Assembly (NCBI GenBank): GCA_947366545.1
Contig: CANBAL010000001.1
Coordinates: forward strand, 122,504-186,503
Reading direction: 5' to 3'
Source of the DNA: an uncultured Clostridia bacterium
Lineage (GTDB): Bacteria; Bacillota; Clostridia; Christensenellales; UBA1242
Length of the DNA stretch: 64,000 nucleotides
Position numbers and translations under genes: made by a program. Shown here in pieces: positions 16,739 to 53,752 of this stretch. The notes below the pieces were generated by a model. The model did not search any database. It worked only from the letters and a program-made list of their open reading frames with translations, and was not told the DNA's origin. Each line of letters opens with the position of its first letter. Positions within the stretch are counted from its first letter, which is position 1.

Positions 16739-17011
16739 CTATTTTACCGCCAGTTTAAAGCTTTCAAAACTTTTGAAGGTGGTCACCTTTTTAGGACGGG
16801 ACATATACACCCGTTTTGTAATAGGATTTACGCATCTTCTTGACTTAGTCTCCACCACCTTAAATTTGCCAAAGTTTCTTAAAGACACTTCTTCTCCCTT
16901 CTTTAACACCTCAATAATTGTATTCCTAAACTCAGTTAACACCTTTTCACATTTGAGTTTAGAAAGTTTTGTCTTTCTTGAAACAAGTTCAACAAGTTCG
17001 CTCTTATTCAT
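16739..17011 (-). CDS. hup: HU/IHF-family DNA-binding protein
   Basis: 90 aa with MNKSELV....., G....L..FGKF.V and R..RNP-like arm residues. Confidence 0.88.
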   Translation of the reverse strand: MNKSELVELVSRKTKLSKLKCEKVLTEFRNTIIEVLKKGEEVSLRNFGKFKVVETKSRRCVNPITKRVYMSRPKKVTTFKSFESFKLAVK

Positions 17012-45080: not shown

Positions 45081-47051
<1,971 letters not shown>

Positions 47052-47363: not shown

Positions 47364-49868
47364 ATGGAAAAATTTGAAAACAAAAAGCCTTTGAGTGAAT
47401 TATTCAAAGATGAAAAAATTGAAAAAAGAGACACTTCACAGGAACTTAAACATTCCTTTATCTCCTATGCCATGGCGGTGAACGTATCTCGTGCCATACC
47501 TGATGTACGAGATGGCTTAAAGCCAGTACACAGAAGAATTCTTTTCAGTATGGGTGAAATGAACAACTTCTACGACAAGCCAACCAAAAAGAGTGCAAGA
47601 ATTGTCGGCGAAGTTATGGGTAAGTATCACCCTCATGGTGACAGTTCTGTTTATGATGCTATGGTAAGACTTGCACAGGACTTCTCCATTCGCTATCCTC
47701 TTGTAGACGGACAGGGAAACTTTGGCTCTGTCGACGGTGACCCTCCTGCTGCTCAGCGTTACACCGAGGCGCGCCTAAGTAAAATCGCCGCCCTTATGCT
47801 TGAAGATATAGACAAGGAAACTGTAGACTTTTATCCAAACTTTGATAATACACTCATGCAGCCAGTGGTACTGCCAGCAAAGATACCTAATCTGCTTATA
47901 AATGGTGCAGACGGAATTGCAGTTGGTATGGCGACTAATATTCCTCCTCACAACTTAAAAGAGGTTTTAAATGGCTTACAAGCCCTTATAGACAATCCAG
48001 ATATTGATATTGACGAACTTATCAAATACATTCCAGCACCCGACTTTCCTACTGGCGGAATTATCATGGGAAGAAGTGCTGTAAAACACGCATATAAAAC
48101 TGGCCGAGGCGGAATTGTTGTACGCGGTAAAGCTGAAATTGAAGAACTTAATAACGGCAGAACTCGCATTGTCATCACCGAACTTCCTTATATGGTAAAT
48201 AAAGCACAATTCATTGTGCAAATGGCAGACCTTGTAAAGAATAAGAAACTTGACGGCATAAGCGATATTCGCGAGGAAAGTGACCGCGAAGGTATGCGTA
48301 TTGTTGTAGATATCAAAAAGGACGCTAACGCACAAGTGGTGCTTAACTCTCTTTATAAACACACCCTTCTTCAAAAAGGAAGCGGAATTATCTTCCTTGC
48401 ACTTGTAAATAATCAACCACGCATTCTCAACCTTAAAGAAATGCTTTACTACTATCTTGAACATCAGAAAGAGGTACTTGTTAGAAAAACTCAATTCGAC
48501 CTTAAGAAAGCAGAAGAGCGTGAACATATTGTAAAAGGCCTTGTTATTGCACTTGCAAATATTGACGAGGTTATTAGAATTATTAAAGCATCCGAGGACA
48601 AACAAGATGCGGCAAGTAAACTTATGGAAAGCTTTGAACTTGACGAAATACAAGTAAATGCAATCTTAGAGATGAAACTTTCAAAACTTACAAGTTTGGA
48701 AGTAGAAAAACTCAATGAAGAATTACGCGAACTTGACGCATTAATCGCCGATTATAAAGACATTCTTGCAAAACCTGAAAGAGTGCTTAAAATCCTTCGT
48801 GACAACTTTGAAGAAATCAAAAATCAATATGGTGACGCAAGAAAGACTGAAATCAGCCTAGAGGCAGGCGGAATTGATATTGCTGATCTTATTGAAAAAG
48901 AAAATGTTGTAATTTCTATGACACATGAAGGCTATATCAAGCGTATGTCTACAAGCGAATACAAATCACAAAACCGTGGTGGAGTTGGCGTCACTGCACA
49001 CAAAACCAAGGATGAGGACTTTGTAGAACGTATGTTTATCACTTGCACCCACAACGACCTTCTATTCTTCACCAACATGGGAAAGGTATACAGCATAAAG
49101 GCCTATGAAGTGCCAGAAGCACAGAGAACTGCAAAAGGCCGTGCAATTATCAACTTGCTACAACTCTCCCCTGACGAAAAAGTAACCACCATTATTCCTC
49201 TTGAAGAAAACAGCACCGGAAATCTTATCATGGCAACAAAATATGGTCTTATTAAGAAAACAATCCTTAATGAATTTGCTTCTATAAGAAAGGTAGGGAA
49301 AATTGCAATCAAACTTGTTGAAGGCGACGCACTTATCGGTGTTGAAGTTTCAAGTGGCGAAGATGAAATCTTAGTGGCAAGTCATGACGGCAAATGTATA
49401 AGATTTGCTGAAGCAGATGTTCGCTCTGTCGGCAGAGATAGCCAAGGCGTAAGAAGTATGAAACTCACCGGTGATGACTATATTGTAGACATGAGCGTAA
49501 TAAAACCAAATAGCGAAATGATAACAATAACCGAACATGGCTATGGCAAGCGTAGTAGCGTAGATGACTATAGACTCCAGTCTCGTGGCGGTATGGGTGT
49601 TAAGGCCGGCGTATTCAATGAAAAAACTGGTAAGCTTATTGCATTAAAACAAGTGGTAGATAACTGCGATATCATGCTTATAGCAGATAACGGAATTATT
49701 ATTAGAACACCACTTGAACAAATCAGCAAACTTTCAAGAGTAAGTCAGGGCGTGCGTATCATGAAACTTAGGGAGGATGCAAAAATAGTTGCCGTTGCCC
49801 TCACTGAAAAAGAGCCAGAGGAACCAACTGAAGAACTTGCTGAAGAAGGTACCTTAGCAGAAGAATAA
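47364..49868 (+). CDS. gyrA: DNA gyrase subunit A
   Basis: 834 aa with [21 protein letters not shown], the catalytic [10 protein letters not shown] and C-terminal beta-pinwheel repeats. Confidence 0.97.
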
Positions 49869-49901: not shown

Positions 49902-49964
49902 TTTTTTATTGCTTTTTTTGTTAAATTATGGTATAATATGCTCGAAATTTTTAGGGAGGGCAAG

Positions 49965-52064
49965 ATGGATAAGGAAGAGCAAAAGTACTTCAATAGTACC
50001 ATTGAGATACTAAACAATGATATAAACAGGACTAGAAAAAAGATAAATGAGGTGGACGAAGAATTTGTTATGGCAAAAAAGGACCTTGCCGACAACTTTT
50101 ATGAAATCACCAGAGGTCATGCCGATGACCCTACTTCAAATGCCGATGACCTTTCCAACCACTATGCCCTTCTCAACCAAATGGAAGAACTCAGTGTCGA
50201 CCTACGAAATCGATTAAAAGGACTGCAAGCACAAAAGAAAAGCCCATATTTTTCTAGAATTGACTTTCTTACAAAGGGCAAAACTGAAAAGATATACATA
50301 GGTCTCTCAAATCTTATGGATAAGGACAATATTATCGTATATGACTGGCGCGCACCTATTTCTTCTATGTATTATGATTATGAACTTGGGGCAGCATCTT
50401 ATAAGGTGGGCAAAAGCACCTTTAAGGGAGAAATTACATTAAAACGCCAATTCAAAATTGAAAACGAAACTTTGCTTTCATATTTTGATACCAGTCTTAC
50501 AATTCAAGACGACATTCTCCAAGAGGTATTAAGTAAAAACTCCTCTGCCAAAATGAAACAGATTGTTTCTTCCATCCAAAAGGAACAAAACTATATTGTG
50601 CGTACTGAGGAATTTGATAATCTGCTCGTGCAAGGCGTGGCAGGAAGTGGAAAAACCTCAATAGCCCTGCATAGAGCCGCCTACCTTCTTTACAGCCATC
50701 GTGGCACTTTAAAGAGTAATGACATCCTTATTATGTCGCCTAACAACATATTTTCAAGTTATATCAGCGAGGTACTCCCACAGCTCGGTGAAGAAAACTT
50801 AGTTGAAACTTCCTATGAGCAAATTGCCCGAATGGAACTAAGAAAACCTATAGAGTCAAGAGAAGCCCTACTTGATAGAATTGCATCAAATCCCACCCAA
50901 GAAGAACTTAATGAAATTTCTTTCAAAAGCAGTTTTGAATATATGGGAGAACTTATTAAATTTCTTCGTGGCGACTTCCTTAACACCTTCACCCCTCAAA
51001 CCCTATCCTTTGTTGTAGGTGTAAAAAAGAGCGAAGATGATAGCGAAGAAAAGATCGAAGAAATCTTCCCTGCCGAAACAACCAGCAAGCTTTTCTTTTC
51101 CACCTTCAAAAATATGACTATAGCAGAGAGAATCAATAAAATTGCATGGCAATATGCAATGTACTTCACGAAAAAGCGACATTATAATAAAGAACAAAAT
51201 CGCGGGCTTAAGGAAAGATTTAAATCGCTTCTCTACAATTTCCTTCCAATTAAAGATATTTTTAAAATTTTTGAGATTTTTGTCACTAGAATGGGTTTAA
51301 AAACCACCAATGATGAAACAGTGTGCTATATGGACAAAGGGGCCCTTCTTATAATTAAAAACTATATTTATGGATTAAGCCATGATTTTAGTGCGAAATA
51401 TTTGATTATTGATGAAATGCAAGATTTTTCGCCAGTAGATTTGTTTATCTTCAAAAAAATGTGGAACTGCCCTAGCATAGTACTTGGCGATATCAATCAG
51501 TGCATAGAGAAAACACTTTCTCCTGACTACCTGCAAGAAATGTCTGACTTTTTAGGCACCAAACTTTTAGAACTGAAAAAGACTTACCGCTCAACAAAGG
51601 AGATTGCTAAGTTTGCACATGATATGATTGGCTTGCAAGGCGTAGAATATGTTAATAGAAGTGGACAGGAGCCAAGGCTTTATGCCACCGAAGATGTTGC
51701 AGCAGCAATTCAAAAGATAATAGAAAACGAATGTAAGGATTTCGCACATATCGCAATTATATGTAAATGCCAAAGCGAACTCGACAAACTTGCCACAAAA
51801 CTTAAAGGTAAAATAGATTTTAAAGAACTAGTCGAACCTGAGGACTATAATAATAAAGTGCTTCTTACCACATGTGCCACCGCGAAAGGTATTGAGTTTG
51901 ACTGTGTTATCATTCCATATGCCGATAAGGATAACTATAGAAACAGCCTAGATAAGAATATATTATATGTTTCTTCAACAAGGGCACTACATAAACTCTT
52001 TTTCATAGCAGAAAAAGAGCAGACGAAATTTTTAAAAGATATAAAAGATATACAAAATTTATAA
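49965..52064 (+). CDS. helD: HelD-like (helicase IV / UvrD-family) RNA polymerase-associated helicase
   Basis: I set the start at MDKEEQKYF, which has an AGGGAGGG SD; the tracked ATG at 49938 abuts the -10 element TGGTATAAT. Motifs include PYFSRIDF, VYDWRAPISS, VQGVAGSGKTS and IIDEMQD. Confidence 0.78.
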   Translation: MDKEEQKYFNSTIEILNNDINRTRKKINEVDEEFVMAKKDLADNFYEITRGHADDPTSNADDLSNHYALLNQMEELSVDLRNRLKGLQAQKKSPYFSRIDFLTKGKTEKIYIGLSNLMDKDNIIVYDWRAPISSMYYDYELGAASYKVGKSTFKGEITLKRQFKIENETLLSYFDTSLTIQDDILQEVLSKNSSAKMKQIVSSIQKEQNYIVRTEEFDNLLVQGVAGSGKTSIALHRAAYLLYSHRGTLKSNDILIMSPNNIFSSYISEVLPQLGEENLVETSYEQIARMELRKPIESREALLDRIASNPTQEELNEISFKSSFEYMGELIKFLRGDFLNTFTPQTLSFVVGVKKSEDDSEEKIEEIFPAETTSKLFFSTFKNMTIAERINKIAWQYAMYFTKKRHYNKEQNRGLKERFKSLLYNFLPIKDIFKIFEIFVTRMGLKTTNDETVCYMDKGALLIIKNYIYGLSHDFSAKYLIIDEMQDFSPVDLFIFKKMWNCPSIVLGDINQCIEKTLSPDYLQEMSDFLGTKLLELKKTYRSTKEIAKFAHDMIGLQGVEYVNRSGQEPRLYATEDVAAAIQKIIENECKDFAHIAIICKCQSELDKLATKLKGKIDFKELVEPEDYNNKVLLTTCATAKGIEFDCVIIPYADKDNYRNSLDKNILYVSSTRALHKLFFIAEKEQTKFLKDIKDIQNL

Positions 52065-52165
52065 ATGTAAATTTATTCATTTTAAACAAATAAACATGGC
52101 AAATTTGTTTAACAAATTGGAATAACCAAATAGACTTTTTGCAAAAAGTTTAAATGCAAATAAAT

Positions 52166-52360
52166 AAATCCACATTAAATAAAAAACAAAAAGCTAAAAA
52201 ACACCTAATTCTTGCCATATTACAAATTTTAGGTGTGGAAATGTGGATAACTTCGGTGTTTTTGTCCACATATGCACCAATATTCAACATTTTGCATAAA
52301 AATAAACGCAAATGTATAAATATTTATTTGTGGAAATGTGGATAACTGAAATGTGGATAA
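52166..52360. promoter_or_regulatory. DnaA-box cluster (candidate oriC element or DnaA-binding regulatory region)
   Basis: TGTGGATAA (reverse complement of TTATCCACA) occurs at 52242-52250, 52337-52345 and 52352-52360. TTGTCCACA lies at 52262-52270. Weaker boxes lie at 52166, 52234 and 52329. The 19-nt repeat TGTGGAAATGTGGATAACT occurs twice. Confidence 0.6.
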
Positions 52361-52386: not shown

Positions 52387-52415
52387 TTGACATGGCAGGA
52401 TTTTTCATTTAAAAT
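52387..52415 (+). promoter_or_regulatory. Promoter of hisS
   Basis: TTGACA (52387-52392), 17 nt, TAAAAT (52410-52415). An AAGGAG SD follows. Confidence 0.6.
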
Positions 52416-52441: not shown

Positions 52442-53752
52442 ATGCAAAATAACAATAAAATCACGCCTCGAAAATTGTCGGGTTTTATGGAACTAATGCC
52501 AGAAAAGCAGATTATCTTTGACAATATGCGTGATAAAATACAAAAAGTATTTTCTAGAAATTGTTTCTCCCCTCTCGATACCCCAGTGTTGGAACTTGCA
52601 AATGTTCTACTTGCAAAATCAGGTGGAGAAATTGATAAAGAAATATATCACTTCTATAAAGGTGACACAGAGGTTGCAATGAGATATGACCTCACCGTGC
52701 CACTTGCACGCTTTGTTGCAATGAATTATGATAAACTCACCTTCCCATTTAAAAGATATCAAATAGGTAAAGTGTACCGCGGAGAAAAGGCACAAAAAGG
52801 GCGATTTAGAGAATTCTATCAATGTGACGCTGATATTATCGGCAATGAACAACTTCCAATTGTTGCAGACGCGGAATGTGTAAACCTTATCTATGAAGTG
52901 TTTAACGAACTCAACTTTGATGTCACAATAAATGTATCAAATAGGAACATTTTGTTTGGACTTGTTGAGAACTTAGGCTATAAAGACTTAACAATGGATG
53001 TCTTAACGGTACTTGACAAACTTCCTAAGATTGGAAAAGATACAGCAAAAGACTGGTTGAAAGAATATGGTTTAAATGAAAACGCTATCAATACATTGAT
53101 TGAAGTTTGCAGTTTGTGCGGCGAAAGCGATTTCATTTTAAACAAAGTATCAGTCCTTGCAAACAATGAGACCTATAACAAAGGCGTAAGCGAACTTAAG
53201 GAACTCTTTGGTTACATTAAAGCCTTCGGCATTACCAATGCTGTACTCAACCTAGGTATCATTCGCGGTCAAAACTATTACACCGGCACAATCTTTGAAA
53301 CATATATGAATGGACACCCTGAATTTGGTGCTATCTGTGCAGGCGGCCGATATGACAACCTTGCCGAGTACTATACCGACAAAAAACTTCCAGGCGTTGG
53401 AATGAGTATTGGTCTTACACGACTTTTCGATCAATTAGATAGTCACAATATGCTTGGTGAAAGCAATCTTAATATCACCGAACTTGAAATTATTCCTCTT
53501 GGTGACACAATAACACACTGCCTTGAACTTAGCACCTATTTCAAAAGCCAAGATATAGTTTGTGAAGTAAACTATGACACCCGCTCTTTCAAAGCAAAAC
53601 TAAGGGAGGCAGATAAAAAGAAAATTCCTTACATTCTTGTTGTGGGAGAAAATGAGGTTGCCTCTGGCACCTATTCACTTAAAGATATGACAAAGGGCGA
53701 ACAATACAACCTAAGCAAAGAAGAGTGCGCGGAAATTATAAAAAACAAATAA
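52442..53752 (+). CDS. hisS: Histidine--tRNA ligase
   Basis: 436 aa with class II motifs (KVYRGEKAQKGRFREFYQCDADIIG and AGGRYDNL) and a C-terminal anticodon-binding domain. Confidence 0.9.
   Translation: MQNNNKITPRKLSGFMELMPEKQIIFDNMRDKIQKVFSRNCFSPLDTPVLELANVLLAKSGGEIDKEIYHFYKGDTEVAMRYDLTVPLARFVAMNYDKLTFPFKRYQIGKVYRGEKAQKGRFREFYQCDADIIGNEQLPIVADAECVNLIYEVFNELNFDVTINVSNRNILFGLVENLGYKDLTMDVLTVLDKLPKIGKDTAKDWLKEYGLNENAINTLIEVCSLCGESDFILNKVSVLANNETYNKGVSELKELFGYIKAFGITNAVLNLGIIRGQNYYTGTIFETYMNGHPEFGAICAGGRYDNLAEYYTDKKLPGVGMSIGLTRLFDQLDSHNMLGESNLNITELEIIPLGDTITHCLELSTYFKSQDIVCEVNYDTRSFKAKLREADKKKIPYILVVGENEVASGTYSLKDMTKGEQYNLSKEECAEIIKNK

Follow-up and report, generated by a model that had tools for sequence, protein, structure and literature searches.

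A conserved DnaA-box module outside the replication origin, upstream of hisS in a genus of small-genome gut Clostridia

We analysed a stretch of 64,000 nucleotides (the window) from an uncultured Clostridia bacterium (genome G000, contig C1:122504-186503; the assembly comprises 950,806 bp in 17 contigs), in which a compact group of DnaA boxes lies between a helicase gene and hisS. The group proved to be part of a module of ~127 bp (window 52234-52360) that is conserved across the genus, contains two copies of a box pair of the kind used at the replication origin, and lies outside the origin. We consider it reasonably probable that this is a self-contained DnaA-assembly module, most likely controlling DnaA as the box clusters of Bacillus subtilis and the datA site of Escherichia coli do. 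Unless a contig is named, positions are those of the window.

Perfect DnaA boxes TGTGGATAA (plus-strand letters; the reverse complement of TTATCCACA) start at 52242, 52337 and 52352, and these three, all inside 119 bp, are the only perfect TTATCCACA boxes of the window. Two-mismatch boxes are found at 52166 (AAATCCACA) and at 52234 and 52329 (TGTGGAAAT), and the 19-mer TGTGGAAATGTGGATAACT is present twice, at 52234-52252 and 52329-52347. The 127 bp thus hold three perfect, one one-mismatch and two two-mismatch boxes in intergenic DNA, as in clusters of the B. subtilis type. Both the cluster and the duplicated 19-mer had been reported in a first-pass annotation of the window, and all of its box coordinates hold. 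The module consists of the following elements:

52234..52252, minus strand: 19-mer, copy 1, reading AGTTATCCACATTTCCACA on the minus strand, with a perfect box (52242-52250) and then an overlapping two-mismatch box (52234-52242)
52262..52270, plus strand: opposed one-mismatch box TTGTCCACA, 11 bp past copy 1
52291..52307, plus strand: AT-rich repeat R1, TTTGCATAAAAATAAAC, with its core TGCATAAAAAT at 52293; a near-invariant block in a 16-species alignment
52311..52327, plus strand: AT-rich repeat R2, AATGTATAAATATTTAT, with its core TGTATAAATAT at 52313; likewise near-invariant in the 16-species alignment
52329..52347, minus strand: 19-mer, copy 2, a weak plus perfect box pair (perfect box 52337-52345), 95 bp from copy 1
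52352..52360, minus strand: third perfect DnaA box, in the same orientation, 6 bp past the perfect box of copy 2 and 4 bp past the 19-mer

The clustering of the boxes is not due to chance. Single boxes occur about as often as composition predicts (14 perfect boxes genome-wide versus 11.7 expected; 19 one-mismatch boxes in the window versus 18.6 expected, i.e. no excess), and the number of perfect-box triplets within 119 bp expected in the whole genome is 1.7e-5. The genome scan for other clusters that the annotation had proposed found none as dense, the second densest being the spacer between dnaA and dnaN. The full module is present in a single copy in G000 (nhmmer, E = 1e-48), and its tandem R1-R2 arrangement is unique in that genome.

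We then compared the hisS loci of 24 congeners (genomes of 0.7-1.3 Mb; HisS 48-68% identical). A same-orientation box pair is found at most 1.5 kb upstream of hisS in all but one of them, and in the exception (G023) the pair lies 1.9 kb upstream; the paired boxes are perfect in every congener except G009, which has TTATCAACA. The common layout is the 19-mer (TGTGGAAA-TGTGGATAA-CT), a gap, R1 (TTTGcATAAAAATaAgC), R2 (TTTGtATAAATATTTA) 20 bp after R1, the second 19-mer and the third box, and R1 and R2 share the consensus core TGYATAAA with a period of 20 bp. A second sequence subfamily has TTGAATATTCATAAAT as R1, TTGAATATTTATAAAT as R2 and TGTGGATAA-GTGGAAA as the right-hand pair. In all species examined the perfect boxes are spaced by exactly 95, 94, 86 or 85 bp, that is, by eight or nine helical turns, so the two copies face the same side of the DNA. 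The gap from copy 1 to R1 is of variable sequence and measures either 41 or 31 bp, and the unit R1 - 17 bp - R2 - copy 2 is rigid, with a fixed distance from R2 to copy 2. Both 19-mers and the third box share one orientation at constrained intervals, as in a datA-type site. The accessory boxes vary more: about half of the species have the opposed box (TTGTCCACA, TTATCCACA or TTATCCACT) 9-11 bp past copy 1, and the others lack it or have a degenerate form. A perfect third box occurs in G000 and the three genomes closest to it (G002, L070 and L071), and most other species have a degenerate box (TGTGGNTAA or TGTGYATAA) in that place.

Sequence comparison indicates that the module is under strong selection. 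The alignment of 16 species contains four blocks with at least 90% conservation, with the gap and both flanks at background level; every column of copy 1 reaches at least 90%, and conservation covers the whole 19-mer beyond the 9-mer, including its trailing CT. The modules of G000 and G002 share 91% identity over 127 bp, as compared to 31-41% for the flanking spacers (41% for the left one) and 47% for third codon positions of hisS, i.e. neutral sites are saturated between species whose modules are 91% identical. Two closer metagenome-assembled genomes (HisS 81-82% identical) keep all three perfect boxes and TTGTCCACA. The 17-mer core of the pair was found in 16 of 16 sampled genomes of the genus, in 2 of 5 others of the family and in 5 of ~380 from the rest of the order, and the reversed 17-mer, used as a control, gave no match. 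Other genera of the family (HisS 34-37% identical) have no box cluster near their hisS.

Single 19-mer pairs occur besides the module in some congeners, namely G308 (four pairs, at C2:43401, 89181, 176930 and 253719) and G353 (C17:6572 and C22:3208). They are not full modules and are mostly intergenic (the copy on G353:C17 may sit inside a coding region), and they may mark further DnaA-regulated loci.

The AT-rich DNA to the left of the module behaves differently from the module itself. The annotation had described an AT-rich stretch with an all-AT inverted repeat, and both are there: the left spacer (52065-52230, 166 bp) is 79.5% A+T as compared to 62.9% for the window, and AAACAAAT at 52084 pairs with ATTTGTTT at 52103. 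The left 170 bp and the inverted repeat are not conserved: identity is 31-41% even to the nearest congener whose flanks are complete. This does not support their proposed function as an unwinding element. The two-mismatch box at 52166..52174 (plus strand, AAATCCACA) lies in this non-conserved spacer, is retained only in the closest relative (L070), and is probably incidental. An open reading frame of 63 aa at 52154-52345 was set aside as spurious because it overlaps the module and starts in the same spacer.

The box pair itself points to DnaA. An identical 17-mer, reading TTATCCACATTTCCACA and followed by trio-like runs, is found in the spacers between dnaA and dnaN of G056 (same genus) and G131 (another family), where Pfam confirms the genes on either side as DnaA and DnaN. 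With up to three mismatches allowed, the intergenic DNA of G000 matches at three places only, namely the two copies in the module and the pair of the origin itself (C3:56940, 2 mismatches). As at the origins described in PMC8287927, the boxes are in tandem with the upstream one nearer the consensus (TTATCCACA, then (A)TTTCCACA). The duplicated 19-mer is therefore the strong-plus-weak pair of the lineage's own origins, which strongly argues that DnaA is the ligand of the module. An 11-mer (ATAAATATTTA) common to the module and the AT tract of oriC was considered as a further link and dropped, its 10 genome-wide matches being close to chance level.

The replication origin lies elsewhere. The annotation had likened the cluster to an oriC DnaA-assembly region, and had counted against this that neither dnaA nor dnaN is in the window; both genes are indeed on another contig, with dnaA at C3:55461-56822 and dnaN next to it. 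When the proposed check of GC skew was made, the cumulative skew of C3 had its minimum in the 52-56 kb bin, at dnaA, and that of C2 had a maximum near 50 kb, which is read as the terminus. Along C1 the skew is negative over 1-156 kb, about zero over 156-184 kb and negative again over 184-188 kb; no switch from minus to plus was seen at the cluster (C1 174.7 kb) in G000. Two congeners place the cluster and dnaA at separate points of the skew curve: G006 has dnaA (72.6 kb) and the cluster (131.7 kb) on one 218-kb contig, with the skew minimum at 72 kb and positive skew on either side of the cluster, 59 kb from dnaA, and G190 has its minimum at dnaA (268 kb) and its cluster at 195.6 kb, 72 kb away, in uniformly negative skew. 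The minimum thus falls at a canonical, dnaA-linked oriC, and the cluster is rejected as the replication origin.

That oriC is easily recognized. The basal unwinding system of bacterial origins comprises tandem DnaA boxes, a spacer of ~13 bp and at least three trios (3'-GAT-5' type, with a middle adenine) (PMC8287927). The dnaA-dnaN spacer of G000 reads TTGTCCACA ... TTATCCACA-attacacattca-CTA ATA ATA TTA CTA TTA TTA, followed by an AT tract, and so matches this definition. The same series (canonical box, spacer of ~12-13 bp, CTA/TTA trios, AT tract) is found in the dnaA-dnaN spacers of G000 and five congeners, and origins of the genus carry six or seven CTA/TTA trios there. No DnaA boxes were found in the 110-bp spacer 5' of dnaA in G000, so the origin is one-sided. 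In the module, the lower strand past copy 2 reads TAT-AAA-TAT at a 13-bp spacing, after which the pattern stops; this is non-canonical, and three middle adenines in a row are near chance expectation in DNA of 74% A+T. No trios follow copy 1.

The annotation had also argued that the plus-strand gene run to the left of the cluster would be head-on to a fork starting there. This was right, and comparison with the congeners traces it to local inversion. Contig C1 of G000 is antiparallel to the right replichore of G006, and within it the gyrB-gyrA block and the helD-cluster-hisS-uvrC block have each undergone a local inversion, so that gyrBA, helD and hisS are transcribed head-on to replication. 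The plus-strand genes at window ~33500-61500 (G000:C1:156000-184000) form a region of near-zero skew inside a negative-skew contig. The block in G190 has the same head-on orientation. Right of dnaA, G000:C3:69800-120000 matches inverted left-replichore genes of G006 (G006:C1:2000-58000), as is typical of congeners whose chromosomes differ by inversions symmetric about the origin.

Four congeners, with genomes of ~0.9-1.0 Mb, have dnaA and the module on one contig, and in these the two are 58 (G118), 59 (G006), 62 (G011) and 72 kb (G190) apart, or ~6-8% of the chromosome, which is origin-proximal; contig breaks leave a lower bound of ~69 kb for G000, if C1 joins C3. The module occurs in either orientation relative to fork movement.

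The neighbourhood of the module in G000 is as follows, and it bears out the annotation's placement of gyrB and gyrA upstream of the cluster:

45099-47051: gyrB
47364-49868: gyrA
49938..52064, plus strand: UvrD/HelD-like helicase gene
52387..52415, plus strand: proximal hisS promoter TTGACA-17-TAAAAT (11 of 12 matches), 26 nt past the last box; a neighbour, outside the module
52442..53752, plus strand: hisS, the usual downstream neighbour of the module

In the species examined the module begins 77-268 bp past the helicase stop codon, with no gene of at least 90 aa between them. Its orientation is that of hisS in every species, and it lies between 90 bp and ~1.9 kb from hisS, depending on the species (within ~330 bp in 18 of the 24 congeners). 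An ORF of 205 aa is inserted between module and hisS in G007, and the next gene past the module in G023 is on the opposite strand. In four of the five species with a long gap, a promoter-like hexamer TTGAC(A/T) stays beside hisS, which suggests that hisS keeps its own promoter there. The distance from the boxes to the proximal hisS promoter is not fixed either (it is 26 nt in G000 and exceeds 1 kb in other species), and no conserved sequence follows the module. The variable distance, the hexamer kept at hisS and the lack of downstream conservation together indicate that the module is not a positioned operator of the proximal hisS promoter. The annotation's alternative that DnaA controls this promoter is weakened. 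Rfam searches of the spacer and, in six congeners, of the long module-hisS gaps detected an unrelated tRNA but neither a T-box nor any other RNA family; the module encodes no conserved RNA or peptide.

Some gaps between module and hisS contain repeats of their own. In G007 (L018), four tandem GC-rich repeats of ~114 bp (...gcaaaaagatatcgcttcgtcgtgctcactcttgcaagcaagttcgcattcctcgcgataacttttgca...) follow directly past the module (~215-700, oriented by hisS), and one or two related copies are found between module and hisS in G006 and G011 (L017 and L019). Each ~114-bp repeat closes with GATAACTTTTGCA, a sequence also found where the 19-mer ends and runs on into the following bases, and the family is GC-rich in an AT-rich genome. 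The hisS gene may have a history of its own as well: beyond the genus, among GTDB species genomes, the next-best HisS matches are from Bacteroidota (Flammeovirgaceae, Ohtaekwangia and Tannerella, 32-36% identity), as compared to ~26% for Bacillota (Paenibacillus) and 34-37% for other genera of its own family, a pattern suggesting that the ancestor of the genus exchanged its hisS for a horizontally acquired one.

The central repeats R1 and R2 can be read in two ways. As a weak rightward promoter they would provide TTGCAT (52292-52297) as -35 and TATAAA (52315-52320) as -10 at a spacing of 17 bp, with the start at the first base of copy 2. As a protein-binding site they would be defined by the TGYATAAA cores, and the invariant positions are these cores, not the promoter-critical bases; R2 also contains a 12-bp palindrome, ATAAATATTTAT. 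A sequence-specific partner site is slightly favoured over a promoter. G000 has two HU-family genes (C1:111846-112115 and C1:139248-139514, the latter at window 16745-17011). ArgR was considered as a ligand of the repeats, since R1 and R2 resemble ARG boxes and a look-alike tandem lies upstream of an ArgR-like gene, and was rejected: the look-alikes, at the ArgR-like and a MurG-like gene, read as ordinary TTGCAT-17-TATAAT/TATATT promoters, so the resemblance does not identify ArgR. The region upstream of the ArgR-like (then RecN-like) gene, G000:C2:38540-38780, carries dense TGCATAA/TGAATAA motifs resembling ARG boxes, which overlap the TTGCAT-17-TATAAT promoter of that gene and probably reflect ArgR autoregulation. 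Neither G000 nor any of 121 genomes of the order yielded a hit to the initiation regulator YabA (PF06156) that passed the curated cut-off, and a correlation between its loss and the module is uninformative as YabA was undetected in all 121.

Several known systems resemble the module in part. The DnaA-box clusters that B. subtilis has outside oriC hold back initiation to a degree that depends on their dosage, and some of them regulate neighbouring genes (Okumura et al. 2012, PMC3245932). Those clusters, like the module, are intergenic, non-origin, origin-proximal groups of consensus boxes on a Bacillota chromosome, and by analogy a dual role in replication and gene regulation may be shared. The B. 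subtilis clusters lie at other loci, none at hisS, and no rigid internal architecture is described for them in the text consulted, whereas the module is one compact unit with an exactly duplicated origin-type pair, a preserved helical phase and an invariant non-DnaA core, found genus-wide as one full copy per genome. In datA, which lies near oriC, strong and weak boxes point the same way and enclose a specific site, the spacing being optimised; this site, for IHF, lies between boxes 2 and 3, and datA serves DnaA-ATP hydrolysis (PMC5742627). The module shares with it the one-orientation high-affinity boxes with an adjacent low-affinity box, the specific non-DnaA site between strong boxes at constrained spacing, the intergenic position and a similar distance from oriC (~10% of the chromosome for datA versus ~6-8%). 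The two have no sequence relationship, the host phylum differs, the core of the module lacks the IHF consensus, and its box pair copies that of the origin; the likeness to datA is one of sequence organisation.

With the basal unwinding system of oriC (Pelliciari et al. 2021, PMC8287927), the module has in common the 17-mer (identical to the pair in G056 and G131, two mismatches from that of G000) and AT-rich DNA after the box pair in the same direction. It differs in lacking a canonical 3'-GAT-5' trio run, in lying off the skew switch and away from dnaA and dnaN, and in that its AT-rich part consists of two sequence-specific repeats, not a degenerate trio array. The core of the DARS sites of E. 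coli has three boxes at fixed spacing, with box I opposed to boxes II and III (PMC5742627). DARS1 and DARS2 are likewise small non-origin clusters with fixed spacing, and the opposed box that about half of the species have past copy 1 recalls DARS box I; however, this box is not universal and its spacing differs, same-orientation pairs dominate in the module, and IHF and Fis sites are absent.

The datA-like DnaA site that the annotation had listed among its alternatives is the best fit to the non-origin position, the conserved duplicated origin-type pair and the rigid spacing. In such a module, DnaA would fill the high-affinity boxes and then spread cooperatively to the weak ones, and a sequence-specific partner (a protein or RNA polymerase) would occupy the central repeats and shape the complex. 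At ~6-8% of the chromosome from oriC, the module is duplicated soon after initiation, and it would hold or inactivate DnaA and so damp re-initiation, as the B. subtilis clusters and datA do. As a secondary effect, DnaA on copy 2 would lie across the start of any transcript from the weak core towards hisS. Four points weigh against this reading. With only ~6-7 boxes, the capacity for simple titration is small. No match to the IHF consensus (WATCAANNNNTTR), which datA has between strong boxes, was found in the spacer of the module; the invariant non-DnaA element R1/R2 occupies that place. The proximity to hisS in most congeners means that a local transcriptional role and a replication role are not separable, and conserved gene order may account for the constant distance from oriC without any selection on gene dosage. 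A more specific version, which we consider unlikely, would make the module the Bacillota counterpart of datA: a decoy half-origin that copies the box pair of the origin and, with a new architectural protein on the TGYATAAA repeats, folds DnaA into an inactivating or non-productively opening complex.

A rather unlikely alternative is that the module is a DnaA-controlled promoter region without a replication role, R1/R2 being a sigma-A promoter (TTGCAT-17-TATAAA), copy 2 an operator at about +1 to +20, and copy 1 acting from upstream, so that the downstream gene (hisS or another) would be tied to DnaA status. This would fit the shared orientation of module and hisS in every species and the short distance (at most 330 bp) in most, and promoters of the form TTGCAT-N17-TATAAT/TATATT with a TG before the -10 drive the ArgR-like and MurG-like genes of G000; the hexamer of the second subfamily is TATATT or TATAAT in five species, and B. 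subtilis clusters regulate neighbouring genes as well (PMC3245932). The boxes keep a fixed position relative to this core, but as a promoter the core is poor: about half of the species have A in place of the first T of the '-35', and of the 15 subfamily-A species in which the element is readable, 14 have a '-10' that does not end in T. The form ATGCAT-17-CATAAA, as in some species, scores only 6 of 12, and a consensus promoter scan does not call R1/R2. Conservation extends over ~16 nt in each repeat, spacer positions included, and stops past the module, with TTGAC(A/T) kept beside hisS in four of the five long-gap species and the next gene of G023 on the other strand.

Very improbable, in our view, is an origin function in any form, whether as the chromosomal origin, the second half of a split origin or a conditional secondary origin. 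Tandem boxes identical to those of relatives' real origins are followed by AT-rich DNA in the same direction, the three middle-adenine trinucleotides 13 bp past copy 2 satisfy the minimal rule of the search program (PMC8287927), and the box-free 110-bp spacer leaves the G000 origin one-sided; but the skew switch is at dnaA and not at the module in all three of G000, G006 and G190, the complete unwinding arrangement with its six or seven canonical trios is in the dnaA-dnaN spacer, the TAT-AAA-TAT of the module is at chance level, 58-72 kb from dnaA is too far for half of a split origin, and the module works in both orientations relative to fork direction. That the 19-mers are bound mainly by some other protein, with an incidental match to the DnaA box, is extremely improbable. 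Conservation of the entire 19-mer, trailing CT included, speaks for it, but the core of the 19-mer matches the DnaA consensus exactly, dnaA-dnaN spacers contain the identical composite, the G000 origin holds a 2-mismatch version, and extra boxes of both orientations accompany the 19-mers.

To our knowledge, the mechanism of initiation-tuning non-origin DnaA sites is understood only in E. coli (datA and DARS), and those of Bacillota are known to us mainly as loose box clusters. The module differs in being compact, rigid, under strong selection and visibly derived from the unwinding-side box pair of the origin, and its invariant central element points to a partner. For origin-prediction tools it is a warning, since in these genomes the origin is not where the boxes are densest. 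If the decoy half-origin were true, the module would be a main brake on re-initiation in a reduced-genome lineage without detectable YabA. In any case its 127 bp are a defined substrate for studying how Clostridia without the known regulators restrain DnaA.

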